Origin: a virus
Taxonomy: Duplodnaviria > Heunggongvirae > Uroviricota > Caudoviricetes
Length of the DNA: 44,739 nucleotides
Direction: 5' to 3' (one strand)
IMG/VR virus record: IMGVR_UViG_647533158_000005
Shown: piece after piece, positions 1,422 through 44,739 of the stretch
How the letters are laid out: each line of letters opens with the position of its first letter
Numbering within the stretch: position 1 is the stretch's first letter
Notes under the pieces: model-generated
What the model was told of the DNA's origin: nothing
What the model saw: the letters and a program-made list of their open reading frames with translations, nothing else
Databases searched by the model: none
Translations under genes and position numbers: made by a program

Positions 1422-3866
1422 TTAAAAATCAGCCTGACTCGGGATCAGTTTTTGCCAGATAGCTGAAACGTATTTTGCCTGGTAACGGGCGTCATCAAGT
1501 GCATTATGGCGCTCACCTTCGAATGGAATAGCCGTTCTGGCATCGAAGTCTATGGCTTTCCCCAGCTCAACAATTGTGCGTACATCGCGATCGTTGTGGT
1601 AGCGCCACGGGCAGGGGATCTCCTGCCGTTCGTATGAACGGCGCAAAATCGTGTTGTCGAAGTTGGCTCCATTTCCCCAGACCTGAACAAAAAATTCATC
1701 GGAGTTTTCGTCGATAAATTCCCGCAATTGTAACAGTGCATCATCTAACGGGATTTCATCGGTCATAATGGCAGATTGCGCTTCGCGTGATTGCTTCAGC
1801 CACCATTTAATGGTGTCCCGATCAATGACTCCGCCAGCAGTTTCCAGATCGATAGTCTTACTAAATTCCGGTCCCATATCTCCGGTTTGCGGATCGAAAA
1901 ATATTGCACCTATTGAGATAATCGCGGCATCAGGATTTTTTCCCATGGTTTCAAGGTCGATCATTAGATGGTCACACGTCCTGCTGGTGGATGTGATTTC
2001 GTGATGACCGTTCACCTTAATTGAGAGAGCTGCCGCCTCGCCAGTTTTATTATCGCTGGCGTGATACTGATCACCACCAGTGTCCTCCTTATGAGGATGG
2101 TCAGTGCCTTTCATTTCCTCCGGATCTTTTTTCTGAGATTCAGCCTGATTTTCTTCATCGAATGTTTCCTGATATGTTGCGTCGCCCATCACCGCGCCAC
2201 AATCAGGGCAGTTGCCGCCACCGCGCTGACCGCAGGCGGTGCAGACTTTTTCCGGTTCCTGTTGCGCTACTGGTTCAAGCAGTTTCGTTTCTGGCTCGTT
2301 TTGTCGCGCATTTGGGCCGTTTTGTTCTGCATTTTGGTCGTTCTGTTCCGTTTCTTGCTGGTTCTGGTTCACAGAATCGCGGGTTTCAATCCCCTTCACC
2401 CATTTCGGATCATTCGGGTCGCTAATCCCTTCAACAAATTCTCCACGAGAAGCAGCCAGTAACTTGTCGGCATCAACAGGATTTTGGGGTGGAATGTTTT
2501 TCCTTGCTTCATGGAGTTCTGCCCGCAGTTTCTGATATTTCGCATCAACAGAATTTATCTGTGGCTGAGCATCCATCGACTGAGTGTCCTGATGATGTTC
2601 AGTTGTATCCGGTTCCACTGCTTCAGGCGTTGCCTGTTCATTTGCCATTGCGCCAGATGGTTGCAGTTTTTCTTCATCATCCTGTTTTCCTTCTTCTGTT
2701 ACACGCTGCGGCATCGGGGCAGAGGAGCGACCGCAGGCAATATCTACGATTTCCGGATCAGGGTTGGCATGATCGGTTTCAGTAAGTACCCTGTTCAGAT
2801 ATTCAGTGACATGTGCAGGGATGACCTCGATACCAATTGGTGCTTCTTTCACGGACGCAACCACGATGGCGCGGGAATAATCCAGCCCACCAGGCATGGC
2901 GATGAATTTGTCGCGGAAAACAGAAAAGGGCGGTTTATTTTCAGCGATAATTTCCTCAATGCGTTTAGCTTGTGCCGGATGAAGGTTATAAATGTCCACG
3001 TCCATTGAACGGGCCAGTACGCCAGTGGCTATGTCGCGCGCCAATGATGCCTGATCGTGGATGAAACCGTCGCCGCGATCGGTAAGGTTCCCGCCTCCAG
3101 CATTAGCACCGGAAGCCGTGCGAGTGATGCGTGAAACACGATTTCCTTTCATCCACTCTTTTGTCAGCAGACCTCGATCGGTGTAGTCAGTGTCCAGGTA
3201 TGCTTCGATGAAAGCGGTCATTATCCCTAGTTCCGAATTTACGGGGACGGGAAAAACACTGTCAGTATCCCGAACCAGTTTGTATAAATCCCGAATTTCC
3301 AGCGGCCCCAGTTGAGCTGCTTTATTTGAGATGGCACGGGTTGTAACCGTAGGGAGTTCTTCATCCAGTGCACTATGCAATGCCCGAAGTTTTTCCCGTG
3401 AAACGTGTGTTACCGGTTTCTCGCTGCCGTGTTGTGCAAGCCAGCGAACGGGCAGTTCCTGACCAGAAATCGGCAGGAGCATACCATCCTCAATCTCTGT
3501 CATATCTTCGCCGTTGACGTTGGTATTGTCAGTGCTGGCTGGTTTGTGCTGCGAAGAGGAAGAGGGCGCGCTAAATATCATTGTGATGCCATCTTCCCCG
3601 CCTTTTTCATATCGATTGCAGAATTCGGTATCAAACACGCCTTCCGGTGGAAGGTCATTCACAACGGGTAAATGGACACGGACGGGTTTTTTAAAGTCGT
3701 CTTCATCATAATCGTTGTCATCCATTGCAGTAATGCAGCGGGAGATAGCAACAGATAATTTTTTTGCTGTAGTCCAGTAAAAACCACCTTTAATTCCCAG
3801 GCGTTTTCTGACTTTGTCATTTTTTGCTTCGCAATATAGTGCAAATTCTTCTTTATCAGTGCTCAT
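1422..3866 (-). CDS. Large phage exonuclease-domain protein (C-terminal DEDD-type 3'-5' exonuclease, central CxxC zinc ribbon)
   Basis: 814-aa ORF; C-terminal ~180 aa contain DEDD-like motifs ([10 protein letters not shown] ... HNALDDARY); CTACGQ...CPDCG zinc-ribbon mid-protein; position matches the exo/recombination slot of lambdoid phages. Confidence 0.6.
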
Positions 3867-4137
3867 TGATAAACCTCATAACTATTTTAAGTTGTATGAA
3901 CCCCTGCCATTTCAGGCATGCTTAATCAGTTGGTATGGCGTTAATATGGCTGGTGGGTTATCCAGCCGGTGTTTCGTTATTACAGAGATACTTTTTTTAA
4001 CGGGAGGCATTCGCCGGAAAATTTTTGCTCATCTCTTGTCTGAAGGCAGGTTGCCTTACTGTCATAAATTCCGGTAATCATATTCTGTGACTCACCTGCT
4101 GTAAGAAAAACCGTCATCACCAGTGCAAATGCCGAAG

Positions 4138-4323
4138 TCATCGCTGTTCTCCAAAAATGCCAAGTTGAAGAAGAGCAATTCTTGAAAGTATGGAATTATC
4201 ATTCAGAAGATAAGGCTCATATTTCCTCATATTAATGGCATCATCAGTGAAGTCTTTATTACTGAGCTGAATGCCAATATTAAAACAACCTTCAGACGTA
4301 TTAACGTTTGGTAATAACGTTTC
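4138..4323 (-). CDS. Hypothetical small protein (61 aa)
   Basis: Internal ATG of the 4138..4482 ORF preceded by GAGGA about 8 nt upstream; low-GC sequence; no recognisable motif. Confidence 0.25.
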   Translation of the reverse strand, partial: ETLLPNVNTSEGCFNIGIQLSNKDFTDDAINMRKYEPYLLNDNSILSRIALLQLGIFGEQR

Positions 4324-4897
4324 CATTATCGCGTCCTCAACAATGAATTTTGTGATGCAGTGCCTGGTGCCTCCAGGTGACGTTAACCAGTTAACAATTA
4401 ACGCCGGAATACATAAGAGGATACTTACGCCAGTAAAAGACCTCTTTACTGATTTAACTGTTCCGCGTGCGCATAGCCGCATTCACCGCATCACAAAATT
4501 CACTTTAAAAAGGGCGGCAGAGCAGTCACGGAGTAAAACTGATACCGCCAAATGTCACCAGAAAATTGATAACAGAGGGCGTTGCAGCGGGGTTGTCACT
4601 TAAGCGTATGGTCAACCTGACAACCCGGTGTCCTCAACGGGGAAGGAATAACCCCGCCATACTTACCGCCGCGCCATTTCGCGGAGTGCCGCAACCGGAA
4701 GCGCACGGTCGACGAAAATTTAACGACAGGCTATCTATGAACCAGCTACCTCGCCGTGCGCTTTCGCGTTATGGTCTGACTTTTCAGGGAAATATCCTTT
4801 CAGTAAACTGTCAGTGCCGGATGCTCACCCGTGTCCGGCGCACGCACTCCACCTCACCCGTGGAGAACTCCTTAATCACCAACCCTCAGGAGGGTGA

Positions 4898-5120
4898 AAT
4901 GGCTAGTAAAAATGTAAATATCCAGTTTAACCACGATGTTTCTCCTGCTGGACTTGCGGATGAACTCAGGGCTATAAAAACGGCAATTATGCTACTTGCT
5001 GCTAAGTTGCCAGCAGCATCACAACCATCAGATATTTGTGACTCATTACGTAAGATGAATTCAACAAAATGCAACGAGATGGCATCACTTATTGAAATAG
5101 CTATTGATTTTAATGATTAA
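4898..5120 (+). CDS. Hypothetical small protein (73 aa)
   Basis: ATG at 4898 preceded by GGAGGG Shine-Dalgarno (inside the longer 4566..5120 ORF whose 5' part looks non-coding); 3' end converges on the 5110..5502 ORF. Confidence 0.35.
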
Positions 5121-5502
5121 TTGATATTTCATTTTCATGCCTAACTGTAAAACAAGCATCCGAAGTGCAATACTTTAAATCACCAGAATTAATGGTGCAC
5201 TCAGTAAAATGGTTCTTAAGGGGTTCTATTCGAATCCCTTTATTTTTCATCAACAAACCAAGCCCCTTATTAATTATATCCATTAACTCCAAAAAGTATT
5301 TGTCAGGTGAGTCTTGGTTATCAGAGCTCTGCTTATCTTCGTACAGCCCGATAAAGGCTCGGCGCACGTTACCGGATATATTATCGATGGTTTCTTTTTC
5401 TACGGTACTCAGGTCAAGAGTCGCCAGTTGAGAACGAACTATATTCGATGCCATTTCCTGGAATGGTACTGGTAAATCTTTAAATTCCATCGTCAACCTC
5501 AT
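5110..5502 (-). CDS. Hypothetical protein (130 aa), low-GC accessory gene
   Basis: ORF with TGATG stop/start overlap to the upstream 76-aa ORF (translational coupling); about 38% GC versus about 50% for the phage backbone; no recognisable domain. Confidence 0.45.
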   Translation of the reverse strand: MRLTMEFKDLPVPFQEMASNIVRSQLATLDLSTVEKETIDNISGNVRRAFIGLYEDKQSSDNQDSPDKYFLELMDIINKGLGLLMKNKGIRIEPLKNHFTECTINSGDLKYCTSDACFTVRHENEISINH

Positions 5503-5732
5503 CAGTCAGTGTTTCTGGCTAACCAGCGACGCGCGCCAGATTCGGTTTTAAACGTTTTACTTTTGGTATACGTCATCGTAGTGAACGTACCGTCATGGTT
5601 GGGAAACACGCCGCACACCAGAGAATCGTTGTTGCTAAGATCGATAGTATCCATGCTGACCTCATTTCCCCTTAACGCCGGGGTAGCGGAACAAAAACCT
5701 GCTGCATAGTTAAAGTTGAACCCTGCCGTCAT
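5502..5732 (-). CDS. Hypothetical small protein (76 aa, or 50 aa from internal start at 5654)
   Basis: First gene leftward of the oL-like operator region; both candidate starts have GAGG Shine-Dalgarno; basic C-terminus. Confidence 0.35.
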   Translation of the reverse strand: MTAGFNFNYAAGFCSATPALRGNEVSMDTIDLSNNDSLVCGVFPNHDGTFTTMTYTKSKTFKTESGARRWLARNTD

Positions 5733-5836
5733 GTTCTTACGCCTCGGGCTGGCTACTTAACCCCTGACCACTGCCTGGTAACTCGAAGTATTGCCCTGCG
5801 TTCTGTGGGGCGGGGTGGGTTGGTATGAAAAGAAGG

Positions 5837-5874
5837 ATACCCATGGGTATTTAAAAAGTAAATACCTGTGGGTA
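5837..5874. promoter_or_regulatory. Putative leftward operator/promoter region (oL-like): two TACC-N4-GGTA palindromes
   Basis: atacccatgggtat (5837-5850, perfect palindrome) and tacctgtgggta (5863-5874), in the intergenic region 3' of the repressor gene. Confidence 0.45.
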
Positions 5875-5917
5875 ATTTTTTTGCGGTGTCTTAACTGGTG
5901 ACTGGTTGTTTGGTGAG

Positions 5918-6337
5918 CTATGATGCGTTTTGTGCTTTCTTTTTACGGATTTCTTCGTAGATCATATTGTAATACTGTTTTTTCTCTTCAAGAGTTTTTA
6001 ATAAGTTATCCGCTTCACTTTCTGGCAGTTCGTCTAAGAGATCTAAAAAAATACGTTGTCGTGGCGTTAGAACCCTTGTTTCATAACTGGAGGCTGTGTT
6101 CGTTGATGATGAAACGATACCATCCATCCATCCCCGGGGTAACCCAAAGGACTCTTCGATAATCTCCACCATATCATCAGCGATCCGTTTTTTTCCCTTT
6201 TTCCCCTCTGGGTACAACATTCTTGATACATAAGAAGGCTCGCGCCCGATCTTTCTGGCCACGTTAACCGCTTTACCATCGCATTTCTCATCACGAATTT
6301 TGATGAGTTGCTGTCGTCTAAATTCATATTTGTCCAT
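5918..6337 (-). CDS. Prophage repressor (short HTH repressor, RacR-like, no peptidase domain)
   Basis: 139-aa ORF divergent from a Cro-like gene across a 100-bp region containing three operator-like palindromes; N-terminal HTH-like segment (KAVNVARKIGREPSYVSRML). Confidence 0.65.
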   Translation of the reverse strand: MDKYEFRRQQLIKIRDEKCDGKAVNVARKIGREPSYVSRMLYPEGKKGKKRIADDMVEIIEESFGLPRGWMDGIVSSSTNTASSYETRVLTPRQRIFLDLLDELPESEADNLLKTLEEKKQYYNMIYEEIRKKKAQNAS

Positions 6338-6357
6338 AGGTAAATAATAGATGCAAT

Positions 6358-6408
6358 TACCGCAAGGTAAACAACCTGTGGGTATTGACTTTTGTTTACC
6401 TGCAGGTA
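6358..6408. promoter_or_regulatory. Putative oR-like tripartite operator with divergent promoters
   Basis: taccgcaaggta (6358-6369), acctgtgggta (6374-6384), tacctgcaggta (6397-6408, perfect palindrome); TTGACT -35-like hexamer at 6385-6390 overlapping the operators. Confidence 0.5.
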
Positions 6409-6437
6409 TTCTTTGCTGTGTTTACTAAGGAGTAGCT

Positions 6438-6719
6438 ATGGAAGAATTAAGAATATTTCTCAATTCTCTTTCGTCAGATGAACAGCGTATGTTTGCATAC
6501 GAGTGTGGTACCAGCATCGGTTATCTAAGAAAGGCATTGAGTAAAGGTCAAGTGCTAGGGGCATCGTTATGTGTCCTTATTGAGCGAGCCAGTACTGGTG
6601 AAGTTACACGTCAGCAACTAAGGCCTTTTGATTGGATGAATATTTGGCCCGAGCTGGAAGATACCAAAACGTTAACACAACCATTTTCTAGGAGCTTGAT
6701 TCATGAAAATCAAGCATGA
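6438..6719 (+). CDS. Cro/YdaS-like small transcriptional regulator
   Basis: 93-aa ORF divergent from repressor; HTH-like segment (ECGTSIGYLRKALSKGQ); strong AGGAG Shine-Dalgarno; gene order as RacR-YdaS-YdaT. Confidence 0.65.
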   Translation: MEELRIFLNSLSSDEQRMFAYECGTSIGYLRKALSKGQVLGASLCVLIERASTGEVTRQQLRPFDWMNIWPELEDTKTLTQPFSRSLIHENQA

Positions 6720-18003: not shown

Positions 18004-19944
18004 ATGGCGTTTAAACATTACGATCTGGTTTCTGCCAGTAGCTGTGATGAACTGCAAAAAAAACTGGCAGAAAAAATAAGTGAAGGGTGGCAGCCATATA
18101 GTTCGCCGTTTACTTCGTATGACGATAACGGGATGAAGTTTATTCAGGCTGTTGCCGCAGAAGGTGAAGTCAGGGTTCCTGTTGAAGTTCCTGATGACGG
18201 TGATGGTTCACAGACCACAATTACCTCTGGTGCACCTGACTATTACTACGTGGTGGTACTCGCCGGCCAGTCCAACGGGATGGCCTACGGTGAAGGGCTT
18301 CCGTTACCGGATTCATTTGACCGTCCTGAACCGCGAATTAAACAACTGGCACGCCGCAGCACTGTGACGCCGGGCGGTACGCTGTGTAAATATAACGACC
18401 TTATTCAGGCAGACCACTGCCTGCATCATGTGCAGGACATGAGCGGGATAAACCACCCGAAAGCTGACCTGAGTAAAGGGCAGTATGGCTGTGTCGGTCA
18501 GGGGCTGCATATTGCCAAAAAACTTCTGCCTTATATTCCGCAGAATGCCGGGATACTTCTGGTTCCCTGCTGTCGTGGTGCTTCGGCATTCACCACCGGG
18601 GATGACGGCTCATTCAGTGAGGTCAGCGGTGCTTCCGCTGATTCTTCACGCTGGGGAGCCGGTAAACCCCTGTATCAGGACCTGCTCAGTCGCACCAGAG
18701 CGGCGCTGGCGAAGAACCCGAAAAATAAACTTCTGGCTGTGGTATGGATGCAGGGAGAGGCAGACCTTGCTTCAGGAAGTCAGCAGCATAATGGTTTATT
18801 CACAGCCATGGTTCAGCAGTTCAGAACCGACCTGTCTTCGCTTGCTGCGCAGTGCGTAAGTGGAAATGCTGCCACGGTGCCGTGGATTTGTGGTGATACC
18901 ACGTATTACTGGAAAAACACGTATGCCACGCAGTATGAAACAGTCTATGGCGCATATAAAAATCTGACCGCACAGAATATTTTCTTTGTGCCGTTCCTGA
19001 CGGATGAGAATGGACAGAACACGCCAACGAATGCTCCGGCGGAAGACCCGGATATTGTGGCTGTCGGGTATTACGGTGCGGCATCCCGTACCCAGGGCAG
19101 TTTTGTCTCCACACAGCGTGACAGCCATTTCAGCTCATGGGCACGCAGGGGCATCATTTCTGACCGTCTGGCCTCCGCTATTCTGCTCCATGCAGGGCGC
19201 ACGGCTGAACTGATGGGCGGGCAGGCCGTGACACCACCGGATGAGAAGCCGTCACCTGACACCCCGTCAGCGGACGGGAAATCAATGACAACGCTGCTTT
19301 CTTACCGGGCATCGGAGTCAGGCGGAGCACTGAAGTCACAGGGATGGGCGGCTGCCGGTGGGAGTGCCATTATTGTTGATGATGCCGGTGCCAGCGGGGG
19401 CAAGGCGCTGAAGCTGACAAAACAGACCGGAAAGTCATGGTTTATGCAGCATGATGCCGGTAATGGTGCTGACCTGCTGGAAAAAGGTGGCCTTGTCAGC
19501 TGTCGTTTTAAACTTGATGGCGCGCTTACGGCTAATCAGTACGCACTGGCGCTGTACTGGCCGGTTTCTTCGCTGCCTCAGGGCGTCACACTGGAAGGTA
19601 ATGCCGGTCATAACCTGCTGGCATCGTTTTACGTTCAGAGCGATGCCACAGACCTTAACGTGATGTACCACAAGGGTAATCCGGACCAGAACACGAAGCT
19701 GGGTTCATTCGGTGCATTTAATAACGAGTGGCATACGCTGGCATTCCGTTTTGCCGGTAATAACAGCATTCAGGTGACGCCGGTGATTGATGGTAAGGAC
19801 GGGACACCGTTCATGCTGTCGCAGTCTCCGGTAGGGACACTGGCGGCAGACAAGTTACGCCTGACAGATTTAACCAGTACGGCAACATATCCGGTGCTGA
19901 TTGACAGCATTTTGGTGGAAGTGAATAACCCGTCAGCAGGATAA
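18004..19944 (+). CDS. Prophage sialate O-acetylesterase-like protein (NanS-p family, SGNH/SASA domain)
   Basis: 646-aa ORF with GAGGA Shine-Dalgarno; VVLAGQSNG motif typical of SASA/SGNH esterases; size and position (upstream of lysis genes) match NanS-p of Stx phages. Confidence 0.75.
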   Translation: MAFKHYDLVSASSCDELQKKLAEKISEGWQPYSSPFTSYDDNGMKFIQAVAAEGEVRVPVEVPDDGDGSQTTITSGAPDYYYVVVLAGQSNGMAYGEGLPLPDSFDRPEPRIKQLARRSTVTPGGTLCKYNDLIQADHCLHHVQDMSGINHPKADLSKGQYGCVGQGLHIAKKLLPYIPQNAGILLVPCCRGASAFTTGDDGSFSEVSGASADSSRWGAGKPLYQDLLSRTRAALAKNPKNKLLAVVWMQGEADLASGSQQHNGLFTAMVQQFRTDLSSLAAQCVSGNAATVPWICGDTTYYWKNTYATQYETVYGAYKNLTAQNIFFVPFLTDENGQNTPTNAPAEDPDIVAVGYYGAASRTQGSFVSTQRDSHFSSWARRGIISDRLASAILLHAGRTAELMGGQAVTPPDEKPSPDTPSADGKSMTTLLSYRASESGGALKSQGWAAAGGSAIIVDDAGASGGKALKLTKQTGKSWFMQHDAGNGADLLEKGGLVSCRFKLDGALTANQYALALYWPVSSLPQGVTLEGNAGHNLLASFYVQSDATDLNVMYHKGNPDQNTKLGSFGAFNNEWHTLAFRFAGNNSIQVTPVIDGKDGTPFMLSQSPVGTLAADKLRLTDLTSTATYPVLIDSILVEVNNPSAG

Positions 19945-37919: not shown

Positions 37920-38994
37920 AAACGGGGGCTGAAGCCATCCGCGCACNNNNNNNNNNNNNNNNNNNNNNNNNNNNNNNNNNNNNNNNNNNNNNNNNNNNNN
38001 NNNNNNNNNNNNNNNNNNNNNNNNNNNNNNNNNNNNNNNNNNNNNNNNNNNNNNNNNNNNNNNNNNNNNNNNNNNNNNNNNNNNNNNNNNNNNNNNNNNN
38101 NNNNNNNNNNNNNNNNNNNNNNNNNNNNNNNNNNNNNNNNNNNNNNNNNNNNNNNNNNNNNNNNNNNNNNNNNNNNNNNNNNNNNNNNNNNNNNNNNNNN
38201 NNNNNNNNNNNNNNNNNNNNNNNNNNNNNNNNNNNNNNNNNNNNNNNNNNNNNNNNNNNNNNNNNNNNNNNNNNNNNNNNNNNNNNNNNNNNNNNNNNNN
38301 NNNNNNNNNNNNNNNNNNNNNNNNNNNNNNNNNNNNNNNNNNNNNNNNGGCGTCACCGGGCATGGCGCGAATCTGCCTTTACGGGGATTTACAACGATTT
38401 GGCCGCCGCATCGACCTGCGTGTGAAAACGGGGGCTGAAGCCATCCGCGCACTGGCCACACAGCTCCCGGTGTTTCGTCAGAAACTGAGCGACGGCTGGT
38501 ATCAGGTACGGATTGCCGGGCGGGACGTCAGCACGTTCGGGTTAACGGCGCAGTTACATGAGACTCTGCCTGATGGCGCTGTGATTCATATTGTTCCCAG
38601 AGTCGCCGGGGCCAAGTCAGGTGGCGTATTCCAGATTGTCCTGGGGGCTGCCGCCATTGCCGGATCATTCTTTACCGCCGGAGCCACCCTTGCAGCATGG
38701 GGGGCAGCCATTGGGGCCGGTGGTATGACCGGCATCCTGTTTTCTCTCGGTGCCAGTATGGTGCTCGGTGGTGTGGCGCAGATGCTGGCACCGAAAGCCA
38801 GAACTCCCCGTACACAGACAACGGATAACGGCAAACAGAACACCTATTTCTCCTCACTGGATAACATGGTTGCCCAGGGCAATGTTCTGCCGGTTCTGTA
38901 CGGTGAAATGCGCGTGGGGTCACGCGTGGTTTCTCAGGAGATCAGCACGGCAGACGAAGGGGATGGTGGTCAGGTTGTGGTGATTGGTCGCTGA
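37817..38994 (+). CDS. I: Tail assembly protein I (interrupted by assembly gap and duplicated flank)
   Basis: Starts MAATHTLPLASPGMARICLYGDLQRFGRR as lambda gpI; after the gap the same 104 nt recur and the frame continues to ...QVVVIGR; removing gap plus duplicate gives a 223-aa protein. Confidence 0.75.
37947..38348. other. Assembly gap (402 N)
   Basis: Run of n; identical 104-nt sequence on both sides (37843-37946 = 38349-38452). Confidence 0.95.
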
Positions 38995-39054: not shown

Positions 39055-42000
39055 ATGGGTAAAGGCAGCAGTAAGGGGCATACCCCGCGCGAAGCGAAGG
39101 ACAACCTGAAGTCCACGCAGCTGCTGAGTGTGATCGATGCCATCAGCGAAGGGCCGGTTGAAGGTCCGGTGGATGGATTAAAAAGCGTGCTGCTGAACAG
39201 TACGCCGGTGCTGGACAGTGAGGGGAATACCAATATATCCGGCGTCACGGTGGTGTTCCGGGCCGGTGAGCAGGAGCAGACACCGCCGGAGGGATTTGAA
39301 TCCTCCGGCTCCGAGACGGTGCTGGGTACGGAAGTGAAGTACGACACGCCGATTACCCGGACCATCACGTCTGCAAACATCGACCGTCTGCGCTTTACCT
39401 TCGGTGTGCAGGCACTGGTGGAAACCACCTCAAAGGGTGACAGGAATCCGTCGGAAGTCCGTCTGCTGGTTCAGATACAACGTAACGGTGGCTGGGTGAC
39501 GGAAAAAGACATCACCATTAAGGGCAAAACCACCTCGCAGTATCTGGCCTCGGTGGTGGTGGGTAACCTGCCGCCGCGCCCGTTTAATATCCGGATGTGC
39601 AGGATGACGCCGGACAGCACCACAGACCAGCTGCAGAACAAAACGCTCTGGTCGTCATACACCGAAATCATCGATGTGAAACAGTGCTACCCGAACACGG
39701 CACTGGTTGGCGTGCAGGTGGACTCGGAGCAGTTCGGCAGCCAGCAGGTGAGCCGTAATTATCATCTTCGCGGGCGCATTCTGCAGGTGCCGTCGAACTA
39801 TAACCCGCAGACACGGCAATACAGCGGTATCTGGGACGGAACGTTTAAGCCGGCATACAGCAACAACCCGGCCTGGTGTCTGTGGGATATGCTGACCCAC
39901 CCGCGCTACGGCATGGGGAAACGTCTTGGTGCGGCAGATGTGGATAAATGGGCGCTGTATGTCATCGGCCAGTACTGCGACCAGTCGGTGCCGGACGGCT
40001 TTGGCGGCACGGAGCCGCGCATCACCTGTAATGCGTACCTGACCACACAGCGCAAGGCGTGGGATGTGCTCAGTGATTTCTGCTCGGCGATGCGCTGTAT
40101 GCCGGTATGGAACGGGCAGACGCTGACGTTCGTGCAGGACCGGCCGTCGGATAAGGTGTGGACCTATAACCGCAGTAATGTGGTGATGCCGGATGATGGC
40201 GNNNNNNNNNNNNNNNNNNNNNNNNNNNNNNNNNNNNNNNNNNNNNNNNNNNNNNNNNNNNNNNNNNNNNNNNNNNNNNNNNNNNNNNNNNNNNNNNNNN
40301 NNNNNNNNNNNNNNNNNNNNNNNNNNNNNNNNNNNNNNNNNNNNNNNNNNNNNNNNNNNNNNNNNNNNNNNNNNNNNNNNNNNNNNNNNNNNNNNNNNNN
40401 NNNNNNNNNNNNNNNNNNNNNNNNNNNNNNNNNNNNNNNNNNNNNNNNNNNNNNNNNNNNNNNNNNNNNNNNNNNNNNNNNNNNNNNNNNNNNNNNNNNN
40501 NNNNNNNNNNNNNNNNNNNNNNNNNNNNNNNNNNNNNNNNNNNNNNNNNNNNNNNNNNNNNNNNNNNNNNNNNNNNNNNNNNNNNNNNNNNNNNNNNNNN
40601 NNNNNNNNNNNNNNNNNNNNNNNNNNNNNNNNNNNNNNNNNNNNNNNNNNNNNNNNNNNNNNNNNNNNNNNNNNNNNNNNNNNNNNNNNNNNNNNNNNNN
40701 NNNNNNNNNNNNNNNNNNNNNNNNNNNNNNNNNNNNNNNNNNNNNNNNNNNNNNNNNNNNNNNNNNNNNNNNNNNNNNNNNNNNNNNNNNNNNNNNNNNN
40801 NNNNNNNNNNNNNNNNNNNNNNNNNNNNNNNNNNNNNNNNNNNNNNNNNNNNNNNNNNNNNNNNNNNNNNNNNNNNNNNNNNNNNNNNNNNNNNNNNNNN
40901 NNNNNNNNNNNNNNNNNNNNNNNNNNNNNNNNNNNNNNNNNNNNNNNNNNNNNNNNNNNNNNNNNNNNNNNNNNNNNNNNNNNNNNNNNNNNNNNNNNNN
41001 NNNNNNNNNNNNNNNNNNNNNNNNNNNNNNNNNNNNNNNNNNNNNNNNNNNNNNNNNNNNNNNNNNNNNNNNNNNNNNNNNNNNNNNNNNNNNNNNNNNN
41101 NNNNNNNNNNNNNNNNNNNNNNNNNNNNNNNNNNNNNNNNNNNNNNNNNNNGGACAGCAGGGCGAACCGGCATCGGTATCGTTCCGGATTGCCGCACCGG
41201 CAGCGCCTGCCACCATTGAACTGATACCGGGGTATTTTCAGATAACGGCGGTCCCGAAACTGGCGGTATATGACCCGACGGTGCAGTTTGAGTTCTGGTT
41301 CTCGGAAAAGCGGATTGCGGAAATCAGGCAGGTTGAAACCACAGCCCGCTATCTTGGCACGGCGCTGTACTGGATAGCCGCCAGTATCAATATCAGGCCA
41401 GGCCATGATTATTATTTTTACGTTCGCAGTGTTAACACCGTGGGTAAGTCGGCATTTGTGGAGGCCGTCGGTCAGCCCAGCGATGATGCGGAAGGTTATC
41501 TTAATTTTTACAAGGGGCTGATTAATAAAACGCATCTTGGCAGGGAACTGCTGGAGAATTTCGAACTGACAGAGGATAACGCCAGCAGGCTTGATGAGTT
41601 CACGAAACAGTGGAAAGACGCTAACGATAAATGGAATGCCATGTGGGGCGTCAAAATTGAGCAGACCGAAGACGGTAAACATTATGTTGCCGGGATTGGC
41701 CTCAGCATGGAGGAGACGGAAGAAGGAAAACTGAGCGAGTTTCTTGTCGCCGCCAACCGTATCGCGTTTATTGACCCGGCAAACGGTAACTCAACGCCGA
41801 TGTTTGTGGCACAGGGCGATCAGATATTCATGAACGACGTGTTCCTGAAACGCCTGACGGCTCCCACCATTACCAGCGGCGGTAATCCCCCTGCATTTTC
41901 CCTGACTCCGGACGGAAAGCTGACCGCTAAAAATGCGGATATCAGCGGCAGTATCACCGCCAGTTCAGGCACGCTCAACAATGTGACGATAAACCAGGAC

Positions 42001-42363
42001 TGTGTGATTAAGGGAAATTTATCTGCAGCACAGATAACCGGAGATATTGCGAAGACGTATGTGCTTAACGGTAACAGTGTGTATATACCGGCTCAGGTAT
42101 TTACCATGAATCTGGTGATGCTGGGTAGTGCTGAACACCTGTACTTTAACGGTAACGAGCAGACACCGGTTTCCTCTGCGATCCTTTCGAGGATGCAGAC
42201 AGACAGTGTCTGGAGCGGCGGAAGTCCGGGGCATGGTGGCGGCAGTTACAGACCTGTCTACAGCACAATCTGGATCAAAGTGTTCAGGCTGAATGCGGGG
42301 ACACCCGTGACGGTGTCGGTTTCAGATAATGCAGTGACGGTTATCTGGATGTCGAAGGCGTAA
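39055..42363 (+). CDS. J: Host specificity / central tail fibre protein J (interrupted by assembly gap)
   Basis: Large ORF after I; N-terminal [22 protein letters not shown] and overall size match lambda gpJ; internal 950-nt run of N. Confidence 0.85.
40202..41151. other. Assembly gap (950 N) inside J
   Basis: Run of n. Confidence 0.95.
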
Positions 42364-42495
42364 ACACGATGAAGATGCCACAACTACCGGAAAAGTCGCC
42401 GGGGGTTCAGGCTGCAGTATCCGTTGACATTTTTATAACCCAGATTAGGTGCCAGAAATGGCGCCTTTTTTATTGCAGAAAAGCGAGAGGTAATT

Positions 42496-43095
42496 ATGCG
42501 TAAATTATGTACTGTTATTTTGTCTGCAGTCGTCTGGCTGGTTGCTGCGGGTGCGCCCGCAGGTGCAGCAGAACATCCCTCCACACTGAGTGCCGGGTAT
42601 CTTCATATTCATTCTGATATGTCCGGCAGTGATGATTTAACAGGGTTCAACGTGAAATACCGCTATGAATTTACGGACACGCTGGGGCTGGTGACGTCAT
42701 TCAGCTATGCAGGAGACAGGAATCGCCAGCTTACCCGTTACAGTGATAGCCGCTGGCATGAAGACTCTGTGCGTAACCGTTGGTTCAGCATGATGGCGGG
42801 ACCGTCTGTACGCGTGAATGAAGGGTTCAGCGTGTATGCGATGGCGGGTGTGGCTTACAGCCGTGTGTCGACTTTTTCCGGGGATTATCTCCGCGTAACT
42901 GACAACAAGGGGAAAACGCACGATGTGCTGACAGGAAGTGATGATGGTCGCCACAGCAACACGTCTCTGGCATGGGGGGCTGGCGTGCAGTTTAACCCGA
43001 CAGAATCCGTGGTTATTGATATTGCTTATGAAGGTTCCGGCAGTGGCGACTGGCGCACTGACGGTTTCATTGTGGGGGGCGGTTATAAATTCTGA
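42496..43095 (+). CDS. lom: Lom/Ail-family outer membrane beta-barrel protein
   Basis: 199-aa ORF with signal peptide, alternating beta-strand pattern and terminal ...GGGYKF; position directly after J as lambda lom. Confidence 0.85.
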
Positions 43096-43122
43096 TTAGC
43101 CTGGTAACACAGAGTAATGACA

Positions 43123-43148
43123 GCCCGCCGGTTCAGGCGGGCTTTTTT
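43123..43148 (+). terminator. Rho-independent terminator after lom
   Basis: gcccgcc-ggttca-ggcgggc hairpin followed by TTTTTT. Confidence 0.7.
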
Positions 43149-43159
43149 GTGGGGGGAAT

Positions 43160-44113
43160 ATGTCAGTACAGATTTCAGGTGTGCTGAAGGATGGTACAGG
43201 AAAACCGGTACCGGACTGTACCATAGAGCTGAAAGCCGTGAGAACCAGCGAGACGGTGATAGTCACCACGGTGGCAGAGCACCAGCCAGGCGAAACGGGC
43301 AGTTACAGCATGCAGGTTGAGCCGGGGCGTTATCGTGTGACCTTGTGCGTGGAAGGTCGTCAGCCGGCATGCGCCGGCGAGATTGATGTCATGGCCGACG
43401 ACGAACCAGGCACCCTGAATGCCTTTCTGCTCCGTGAAACGGATGCAGCGTATTACCCTGATGCACTGAAGAAGCTGGAAGCGGCGGCGGATGAGGCTGT
43501 GCGCAGGGCGCGAGAAGCTGCTGAGAAAGCCGAAACTGCCGTGGGGCCACCGGGGCCGAAAGGGGATAAAGGTGACAAGGGCGATAAGGGGGATACCGGT
43601 CCGAAAGGTGAACAGGGCGATCCGGGCGGACCACCGGGACCGAAGGGCGACAAGGGGGATACAGGCCCGGCAGGTCCACAGGGGCCGAAAGGGGATACGG
43701 GAGCTGCAGGACCGGCAGGGCCTCAGGGTCCAAAAGGGGATACGGGAGCTGCAGGTCCGACAGGTCCACAGGGACCGAAAGGGGATACTGGAGCAGCGGG
43801 TCAGGCAGGTCCGCAGGGACCTAAGGGGGATACTGGAGCCACAGGCCCGGCTGGACCACAGGGACCGAAGGGAGAACCGGGAGCTGGAACTCAACAGGTC
43901 AGTGCGGGTGATATAGGGTCTCTGGTTTATGCCCTGTACGAAGGCACGGCAGACTATGGCGACAGTGTTGCAGCCAGCCAGTTGCACCCTTCATCTTCTT
44001 ATGATGCAGATGTAAGTTTCGATAACTCTGCTGTCACTCTGTCAGGGACATGGCGTTGCCTTGGATATGTAGGGATGCCGACAGGGAAATCACTGTTTAT
44101 GCGTATAAAATAA
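43160..44113 (+). CDS. Side tail fibre (Stf N-terminal-domain) protein with collagen-like Gly-X-Y repeats
   Basis: N-terminus [26 protein letters not shown]... matches lambda Stf N-terminus; aa 129-239 are GPxGPKGDTG-type triple-helix repeats. Confidence 0.7.
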
Positions 44114-44130
44114 ACGAGGAGGAAAAAGTT

Positions 44131-44739
44131 ATGGCAGAGACGGTAACTGGTGTTATTGCCGTTCGTAATGCTGCGTATAACGAAAATGGTGGTATCACGT
44201 GTGATGTGCAGTTTGATGGTGCGGTGAATGAATCGGGTGAACCGCTATGGTTACCGTATGCGGCGACGGAAACAGACAGCACGCCGCACGGCAAAGCATT
44301 ATGGTCGGGACTGATATCAGGAAAATACGGTGTGGTGACGCCCTTTACGGTCACGGATGAGGTACTGGATGAGGCGCGGGAAGCAAAGCGTACGGAAATC
44401 AATCGCTGGCGTGATATTCAGGAGGATACGGAATATGTGATGGAGTTCAACGGCAGGCGGTGGGATTACGGGAAAAAGACGCTGTCCAGGATAAGCACGA
44501 CACGCCTGATGGCAGAGAATAACCGTCTTCCGGAGGGTTTTGCCTGGACCGACGGGGATAATAATGTGGTGCCGGTAACGGCGGCGGAGATAATTGCGCT
44601 GGCAGATGCGACAGAGCAGGCGATGTTTGCGAAGGGTGTGGAGATTAATACACGGCAGTTGCAGATGAAAGCCGAGGTTGAAGCACTGACAGACCTGAAG
44701 GCGATCCGCAGTTATGTTGTCGGATGGCCTGCTGGCTGA
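44131..44739 (+). CDS. Hypothetical phage protein downstream of tail fibre (possible fibre assembly/chaperone)
   Basis: ATG at 44131 preceded by GAGGAGG; 202 aa ending at the last bases of the window; function inferred from position only. Confidence 0.35.
   Translation: MAETVTGVIAVRNAAYNENGGITCDVQFDGAVNESGEPLWLPYAATETDSTPHGKALWSGLISGKYGVVTPFTVTDEVLDEAREAKRTEINRWRDIQEDTEYVMEFNGRRWDYGKKTLSRISTTRLMAENNRLPEGFAWTDGDNNVVPVTAAEIIALADATEQAMFAKGVEINTRQLQMKAEVEALTDLKAIRSYVVGWPAG

Follow-up and report, generated by a model that had tools for sequence, protein, structure and literature searches.

The stretch of DNA analysed here (44,739 nt; referred to as the window) comprises a complete lambdoid E. coli prophage with the integrase gene at its left end and the fibre genes at its right end (Table 1). 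Across its structural region it shares about 87% identity with lambdoid E. coli phages, among them long-tailed Stx-type ones. A short side tail fibre gene occupies the position known from the lambda order J - lom - stf. The start of the final gene, which codes for a DUF4376 protein and is preceded by its own Shine-Dalgarno sequence, lies 18 nt past the fibre stop codon. The plaque-forming phage PhiR5_1 and E. coli chromosomes show the same succession of J, lom, fibre gene, DUF4376 gene and prophage end.

Table 1. Genes and sequence features of the window referred to in the text (positions in nt).
Feature	Position	Strand	Evidence and remarks
Lambda-type integrase gene	1-1131	minus	PF09003 and PF00589
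J-like ORF, upstream of lom	39055-42363		ORF list
lom (Ail/Lom outer-membrane protein)	42496..43095	+	PF06316, E 4.8e-113; phrog_108 Lom
Short side tail fibre gene, 317 aa plus stop	43160..44113	+	ORF; PF08400, PF01391; phrog_366 tail fiber, E 3.4e-87
N-terminal collar (anchor) domain, aa 1-91	43160..43432	+	phmmer to Ur-lambda Stf chain 9e7m_Ta, E 9.9e-28
Linker and short Ala/Glu/Lys/Arg-rich helical neck (likely), aa 92-128	43433..43543	+	within PF08400 match
Collagen segment 1, 9 Gly-X-Y triplets, aa 129-155	43544..43624	+	sequence
Interruption G-X-P-G-G-P-X-G, present as GDPGGPPG, aa 153-160	43616..43639	+	sequence
Collagen segment 2, 29 Gly-X-Y triplets, mostly in 15-residue units, aa 157-243	43628..43888	+	sequence
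45-bp tandem array, six units	43628..43897	+	Tandem Repeats Finder, repeat families D1/D2, pairwise matrix
C-terminal knob, 74 residues, predicted all-beta	43889..44110	+	HMMER, profile, AF2, Foldseek
Shine-Dalgarno sequence GAGGAGG	44116..44122	+	read from sequence; 8 nt ahead of the DUF4376-gene ATG at 44131
DUF4376 gene, 202 aa plus stop, final gene of the window	44131..44739	+	PF14301, E 4.2e-17, aa 81-188

The fibre protein can be divided into a collar domain, a helical neck, a collagen-like shaft and a C-terminal knob. Its N-terminus had been called lambda Stf-like in a preliminary description of the sequence, which was confirmed by the match to Ur-lambda Stf (Table 1) and by a match to PF08400 (prophage tail fibre N-terminal domain; aa 1-127, E 7.1e-41). 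With 317 residues the protein is, as also stated there, much shorter than lambda Stf. PF08400, PF01391 and PF13620 were the only Pfam families matched by the fibre protein and PF14301 the only one matched by the downstream protein; a gp37-like distal shaft or tip and Caudo_TAP gave no Pfam match in either of them.

In the Ur-lambda structure, the gpV/gpM junction is surrounded by a collar of twelve Stf copies, from which four trimeric fibres arise (PMC12617516). From this structure we infer that the collar domain of the window protein would dock at the corresponding junction. The region following the collar is likely to act as an N-terminal trimerisation segment in the form of a short trimeric helical neck. 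Lambda Stf (residues 92-101 and from 102 on) and the PCoil of the EPcl proteins described below suggest such a coiled-coil role by analogy.

Relatives of the fibre gene carry the RefSeq name 'prophage tail fiber N-terminal domain-containing protein'. Megablast matched the gene in 43 of 5426 complete E. coli genomes. In searches of phage genomes the match was limited to the first 176 bp of the gene (megablast) or to the N-terminal ~100 residues of the protein (tblastn), the latter presumably due to masking of the collagen part by the BLAST low-complexity filter. E. coli chromosomes and look-ups of exact proteins were more informative than these phage-genome searches.

Collagen-like block, 45-bp array and length variants

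The Gly-X-Y run starts at position 43544 (G129), exactly where the preliminary description had placed it, and matched the Pfam Collagen family (PF01391) with an E value of 1.3e-18. Its end had been set too early, at 43877 after about 110 residues; the run continues for another 11 nt to 43888 (G243 triplet) and comprises 115 residues (aa 129-243). It consists of 38 triplets, nine in front of and 29 behind one extra glycine (G156, nt 43625-43627), which moves the Gly register by one. The interruption motif G-X-P-G-G-P-X-G around this residue, at which the triple helix would probably bend or be flexible, was found in most relatives. At 0.286 nm per residue the 115-residue allele corresponds to a length of 33 nm.

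The composition of the X and Y positions deviated by a few percent or less from the values published for E. coli prophage collagen-like proteins (EPclP; Table 4 in Ghosh 2012, PMC3368898). X positions were occupied by Pro (50%; published 48%), Asp/Glu (34%; 36%) and Ala (13%; 10%). In the Y positions we counted 32% Lys, 21% Thr, 18% Ala, 16% Gln and 10.5% Pro, compared with published frequencies of 31% for Arg/Lys, 20% for Thr, 21% for Ala, 14.5% for Gln and 7.4% for Pro.

At the DNA level most of the block forms a tandem array. For 43631-43886, Tandem Repeats Finder reported 5.7 copies at a period of 45 bp (79% matches, score 281). The repeats had been described as near-identical, which is an overstatement: DNA identity among the four central units (43673-43852) amounts to 76-87%, and exact repeats within the block reach 23 nt at most. 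In protein the same units are 87-93% identical, and codon differences among them were synonymous in 39 cases and non-synonymous in nine. The array is therefore old and has been kept constant in protein, rather than being a recent perfect duplication. All seven matches to the degenerate 23-nt unit motif in the 44.7-kb window (0.01 expected from shuffled sequences) fell within the block, so that no second template copy of the variable DNA was detected in the window. Furthermore, no inverted repeats were found in 42400-44739. A diversity-generating retroelement and an invertible fibre segment were therefore rejected as sources of variation.

To what extent the block differs between related prophages could be read from three contigs (L005, L006 and L007) that encode exactly the DUF4376 protein of the window. 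Their fibre proteins are longer, with 329 aa in L005 and 344 aa in both L006 and L007, and the Gly-X-Y blocks comprise 127 and 142 residues, respectively. The N-terminal and knob codons of L006 are identical to those of the window at the DNA level, and the knob proteins of L005 and L006 are identical to that of the window. Alignment of the DNA from 43500 to 43900 revealed that an in-frame indel of 81 bp, with the junction repeat GGGCCAC (7 bp), lies where the block begins, and that L005 lacks exactly one 45-bp unit, with the junction repeat GGGGATACTGGAGC (14 bp). Apart from these two indels the alignment differs at two bases only. All indels observed are multiples of 9 bp and keep the Gly register. 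In-frame indels of this kind, at short direct repeats, are a signature of slippage or unequal recombination. The earlier proposal that the repeats vary fibre length is thus borne out by blocks of 115, 127 and 142 residues on identical flanks. In more distant relatives sharing the same knob, blocks of 133 and 145 residues were present, and among all knob-bearing relatives from the protein search the block ranged from 24 to 183 Gly-X-Y residues, equivalent to approx. 7 to 52 nm. The exact 317-aa allele was not found in a collection of 15 billion proteins, so that the 81-bp deletion is known from this assembly only.

Terminal knob, DUF4376 protein and related fibres

The last 74 residues of the fibre protein gave no Pfam match. 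In particular, hmmscan did not detect PfC (PF06820) even at an E value of 10, and the knob profile aligned to a PfC sequence with an hhalign probability of 0.1%; a PfC domain was therefore rejected. A word-indexed protein search with the knob alone retrieved two near-identical fragments only and was superseded by an exhaustive HMMER search of 1.84 billion representatives, which yielded 25 clusters at E <= 1e-3. In nearly all of them the knob forms the extreme C-terminus, in proteins of 96-1200 aa, and the N-terminal parts of the full-length proteins sampled were unrelated. Among the positions conserved in the knob are a Gly that precedes a hydrophobic strand (GSLVYA), the motif G-T-W-R-C-x-G-Y and a terminal LF-x-R-I. 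The domain fits an unnamed 'GTW' type of ~75 residues at the extreme C-terminus with an invariant G...GTW...G and the ending [LI][FWY]xR[IV]x (alignments A4/A5). Moreover, the profile found the tail fibre gp47 of Pseudomonas phage Pa193 (E 2.6e-8), the match covering its final 78 residues. The AF2 model based on a 20-sequence alignment was all-beta (pLDDT 85), and a Foldseek search of BFVD returned 14 matches at E <= 1e-3, mostly named tail fibre proteins.

Compared with two related loci (L001 and L003), the N-terminal domain and the knob both displayed a dN/dS of 0.15, indicating purifying selection. In contrast, comparison of the window with E. coli M8 (L002) gave 99% identity for the N-terminal domain and only 29% for the knob, and the changeover point coincides with the end of the collagen array. 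By sequence comparison, the collagen-coding DNA would be the joint at which anchor and tip modules are exchanged. C-terminal modules in the wider PfN-Col family comprise the knob described here, Pf2 plus knob, PF21882, PfC and the peptidase-S74 intramolecular chaperone. The minimal PfN-Col-knob architecture was common among database relatives, with short versions in Citrobacter and Salmonella as well. Low dN/dS within a knob type combined with strong divergence between types is in line with the knob being the distal, receptor-binding tip. The receptor-binding part had initially been placed elsewhere. Against this stand a knob under purifying selection with a confidently predicted fold that terminates many unrelated fibres, and the nature of the sole downstream gene: its family, DUF4376, includes proteins demonstrated to be tail fibre chaperones.

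The 202-aa downstream protein is exactly E. coli WP_000852444.1, for which one source gives the name 'phage tail fiber assembly protein'; phrog_1141 (PHROG) and several GenBank records call such proteins 'tail fiber protein'. Membership in the DUF4376 family and gene order point to a tail fibre assembly chaperone or cap. Active fibres require downstream-encoded DUF4376 proteins in Alteromonas phage V22 (gp27) and in a Campylobacter CJIE1-like prophage, and in the Alteromonas work such chaperones were proposed to act as transient caps. A folding function is further supported by sister alleles of the PfN-Col family, which carry a C-terminal intramolecular chaperone domain (PF13884) in place of a separate gene. 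A PDB sequence search with the DUF4376 protein gave no match. In its AF2 model (pLDDT 93), three beta strands make up the N-terminal part, next to a helical body that contains a central beta hairpin. Invariant columns cluster at 93-199, and the N-terminal beta domain is the more variable half. Between E. coli M8 and the window, the N-terminal domain of the DUF4376 protein is 68% and the C-terminal domain 87% identical, next to the 29% of the knob; in this comparison a co-variation of the N-terminal domain with knob type, as expected of a cognate chaperone, was not found. Should the DUF4376 protein act as a chaperone, recognition would probably involve the conserved knob core rather than the variable surface.

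The closest described proteins are EPclA-D, collagen-like tail fibre proteins of E. coli prophages with a PfN domain and a conserved G-X-P-G-G-P-X-G (Ghosh 2012, PMC3368898). Their collagen domains vary in length by multiples of three residues. EPclA was shown to be a trimer with the CD signature of collagen, high thermal stability and a dumbbell shape in EM, in which PCoil and PfC serve as trimerisation modules (PMC3368898). PfN (PF08400), PF01391 with the EPclP preferences in X and Y, and the GxPGGPxG interruption are all present in the window protein, which on sequence grounds would be a member of the EPclP family, closest to the EPclC type. It resembles EPclA (ECs2717 and paralogues from E. 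coli O157:H7 prophages) in having PfN, the same X/Y preferences and a single collagen domain (115 residues versus 111 aa in EPclA). Both the 116-aa PCoil and the PfC (PF06820) of EPclA are missing; EPclA/B, and likewise EPclD, contain a PCoil of 88-116 aa between PfN and Col, whereas the window protein has only ~37 residues in this place.

EPclC ORF-401 of prophage P-EibA shares with the window protein the PfN domain, the lack of a long PCoil, the GxPGGPxG motif, a non-PfC C-terminus and the order J-lom-fibre. Its C-terminus contains GTWR...LFQRI and aligned with the knob profile over the last 29 columns (hhalign probability 94%, E 1.4e-7), with the GS..., GTW and LF.RI positions in common (alignment A4). 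It is also followed by a DUF4376 gene (ORF-191A), the product of which is 48% identical to that of the window. In contrast to the window protein, ORF-401 has 479 aa and two collagen domains split by a non-collagen segment (VQLSSDTNSDDETKAATPKAV...), the Pf2 repeat in the scheme of Ghosh. The listed EPclC examples possess two collagen domains and the Pf2 repeat (PF03406), whereas the window protein contains one collagen block, broken by a single extra Gly, and no PF03406 match; knob identity to ORF-401 is only 21%. With its single collagen block and no Pf2 repeat, the window protein is thus a minimal anchor-shaft-knob version.

More distant systems share single parts of the locus. Ur-lambda Stf has the homologous collar domain and the position after J and lom, and four trimeric fibres are expected for both. 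Lambda Stf itself (774 aa) differs by a coiled-coil/gp37-like shaft, a hinge and an OmpC-binding tip in place of the collagen-like shaft, and its helper is Tfa (Caudo_TAP), while the helper candidate in the window is the DUF4376 protein. In Alteromonas phages V22 (gp26/gp27) and A5 (gp8/gp9), as in the window, the fibre gene is immediately followed by that of a ~200-aa DUF4376 protein. The Alteromonas chaperones were described as having a three-stranded beta sheet at the N-terminus and a helical body carrying a beta-hairpin 'tentacle', to which strands, body and hairpin in the AF2 model of the DUF4376 protein may correspond. In contrast, the fibres of V22 and A5 have a lectin-like head and neither collagen nor PfN, both of which are present in the window fibre, and the beta sheet of their chaperones co-varies with the head, unlike at the window locus. 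Pa193 gp47 (PB1-like myovirus, PDB 9b45) contains the same knob family at residues 884-961 of 962; the rest of this fibre is unrelated to the window protein, and its structure covers residues 1-340, with the knob outside.

Proposed fibre architecture and competing explanations

Taken together, the collagen-like block probably represents the shaft of a short trimeric side tail fibre encoded by a complete lambdoid E. coli prophage. By homology to the solved structure, residues 1-91 would fold as an Stf collar, with twelve chains (four trimers) docking round the junction of tail tube and tip. Register between the three chains may be held by the helical neck (aa ~100-128) together with the C-terminal knob, and the 115-residue block could wind into a collagen triple helix of ~33 nm with a probable kink after the ninth triplet. 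Within the family a triple helix was demonstrated experimentally for EPclA/B only (CD, AUC, EM; PMC3368898). Family relationships and gene order suggest that the 74-residue beta knob would be the distal tip touching the cell surface, and that the DUF4376 protein would aid knob trimerisation and may cap the knob. Slippage or unequal recombination at short direct repeats of the diverged 45-bp array would add or remove whole triplets in frame, and fibre length would consequently differ among otherwise identical prophages. The collagen-coding DNA would double as a joint for swaps of anchor and tip; the indels and one such swap are directly visible in the comparison of loci. The near-constancy of the DUF4376 protein upon a change of the knob seems to fit less well with this model, given the tight co-variation reported for the Alteromonas pairs.

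An explanation that we consider unlikely divides the fibre between two proteins, the 317-aa protein serving as anchor and spacer and a tip-attached DUF4376 protein binding the receptor, like gp38 on T2 and T6 fibres. It is in line with the 'tail fiber protein' labels of phrog_1141 and several GenBank records, with the greater variability of the N-terminal beta domain of the DUF4376 protein and with the proposal from Alteromonas that chaperones stay on as caps. The comparison with E. coli M8 showed the opposite of what is expected for specificity borne by the DUF4376 protein, namely a replaced knob beside a largely retained partner. Moreover, the knob is a conserved terminal domain in many fibres, and the experiments with V22 gp27 and the CJIE1-like prophage favour a chaperone role. 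Between an adhesin function of the DUF4376 protein and the knob as tip, the adhesin reading is the less likely.

That the gene is a decayed remnant, a longer stf truncated in a cryptic prophage and lacking a present function, appears improbable. The short length in comparison with lambda Stf, the unique exact allele and the occurrence of the gene in few complete E. coli genomes could be explained in this way. The frame is intact, however, a defined C-terminal domain is present, and both flanking domains are under purifying selection. Each indel preserves the Gly register, and the same short architecture with the same DUF4376 gene was found in four E. coli chromosomes, in addition to the short PfN-Col-knob proteins of Citrobacter and Salmonella. 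Even lower is the probability of an assembly collapse, in which the true block would have 142 residues as in L006/L007 and which the preliminary description had named as a possible refutation. The 81-bp difference from the nearest relatives was found in the window sequence alone. An artefact in repeat number is nevertheless unlikely: exact repeats in the block do not exceed 23 nt, and a stretch of eight consecutive bases is the most that the sequences on either side of the 81-bp junction have in common, too short for a k-mer or read-level collapse to be probable. In addition, the deletion is in frame and removes exactly nine triplets, and two independent data sets gave the same assembly of the 142-residue version.

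We also weighed a role in lysogenic conversion, with the gene product as a collagen-like protein of the bacterial surface that meets the animal host, comparable to Scl and BclA, and not as a part of the virion. The adjoining lom gene would be compatible with such a role, since lom of lambda is expressed from the lysogen. Collagen-like proteins of Gram-positive pathogens act in this way (PMC3368898). This explanation is extremely improbable for the present gene: the protein starts with the Stf collar domain, a virion component, no hydrophobic stretch resembling a signal peptide was seen in the N-terminal sequence, and the gene lies within the late tail operon right before a gene of fibre chaperone type.

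The literature of 2012 already covered the family, its collagen chemistry, the interruption motif and the variable collagen length. RefSeq routinely annotates such genes, and the finding is real but ordinary; the locus leaves existing knowledge of the family unchanged. New to the databases searched is the exact allele, and the minimal PfN-Col-knob architecture is not among the four named classes. Side fibres of lambdoid phages accelerate adsorption and broaden host range, also in phages carrying virulence genes between E. coli strains. In this respect the locus offers a clean natural case, with three fibre-length alleles on otherwise identical DNA and a swap of the tip module across the collagen-coding joint, which makes it useful as background to the engineering of fibre length or specificity. 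It also draws attention to a widespread tip domain of unsolved structure and to its DUF4376 partner in E. coli.

A more speculative extension, to which we assign a low probability, is that knob and DUF4376 protein constitute a two-part fibre tip, with a DUF4376 trimer staying in place as a removable cap or adhesin, and that slippage in collagen length is a contingency mechanism. If so, collagen length (24-183 residues, ~7-52 nm among relatives) would adjust how far, compared with the central J fibre, the side fibres extend across O-antigen or capsule.

Module exchange in the fibre gene; the helper gene and the prophage flanks

Comparison of the window fibre gene (43160-44113) with its counterpart in E. 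coli M8 (4061-5254 in locus L002) revealed 99% identity in the anchor domain and 29% in the knob. In the M8 gene, the near-identical anchor is connected via a collagen array to another knob. The aligned sequences show a clear swap of modules between the two genes. In bovine OkiPb strains, a gene labelled just 'tail fiber protein' has a collagen end and a knob of the window type, and its match to the window fibre gene is limited to the last 320 nt (hits H173-H180).

Escherichia phage PhiR5_1 (PV340545; listed host E. coli C) is plaque-forming and contains both a fibre gene and a DUF4376 gene, demonstrating that the fibre/helper pairing is present in viable phages. For the DUF4376 gene of the window, the ATG at 44131 is preceded by a Shine-Dalgarno sequence (GAGGAGG) 8 nt 5' and gives a product corresponding to the RefSeq 202-aa protein. 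An upstream ATG at 44050, used by some database entries (229-aa cluster members), would lengthen the ORF to 229 aa and extend it into the 3' end of the fibre gene.

Prophages harboring the fibre module end at differing chromosomal sites, as seen from the flanks of five related loci. The end adjoins prfC/osmY in L001, ompW/yciE-yciF-trpA in L002, L005 and L006, and ykgJ/potB in L003. In L001, IS66-family elements are located between J and lom.

Signals and reading frames around the fibre gene

A G+C-rich, terminator-like hairpin is favourably placed 17 nt upstream of the fibre ATG, in the gap that follows lom; the number of terminator-like sites in the scan was not above that of shuffled sequence. 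Acting as a terminator, this predicted hairpin would make fibre gene expression dependent on antiterminated late transcription.

The Gly-Pro-coding repeat has a G+C content of 67% and few stops. Three further long ORFs crossing the collagen block are most likely side effects of this G+C-rich, stop-poor repeat and not genes.

Features of the window and of the PhiR5_1 fibre locus
Feature	Coordinates	Strand	Remarks
Exonuclease VIII-like ORF	1422-3866		
DNA methylase	15230-16288		
646-aa ORF	18004-19944	+	DUF1737, SASA (sialate O-acetylesterase), DUF6645
N run	37947-38348		402 bases
N run	40202-41151		950 bases
Second terminator-like hairpin	42447-42466		upstream of lom
Strong terminator-like hairpin	43122-43143	+	AGCCCGCC...GGCGGGCT, then TTTTT
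Overlapping ORF, 270 aa	43175-43987	-	crosses collagen block
Overlapping ORF, 126 aa	43389-43769	-	crosses collagen block
Overlapping ORF, 141 aa	43491-43916	+	crosses collagen block, different frame from fibre gene
PhiR5_1 (L008) fibre and helper	4374-6543 (in L008)		523-aa PfN-Col-spacer-Col-knob-variant fibre, then DUF4376 'tail fiber assembly protein'

Other regions of the window

Stretches of the tail genes are hidden by the two N runs, which mask the middle of the J-like ORF among others, so that J is assessable in part only. The 646-aa ORF encodes a NanS-p-like esterase, a typical component of Stx-phage late regions.
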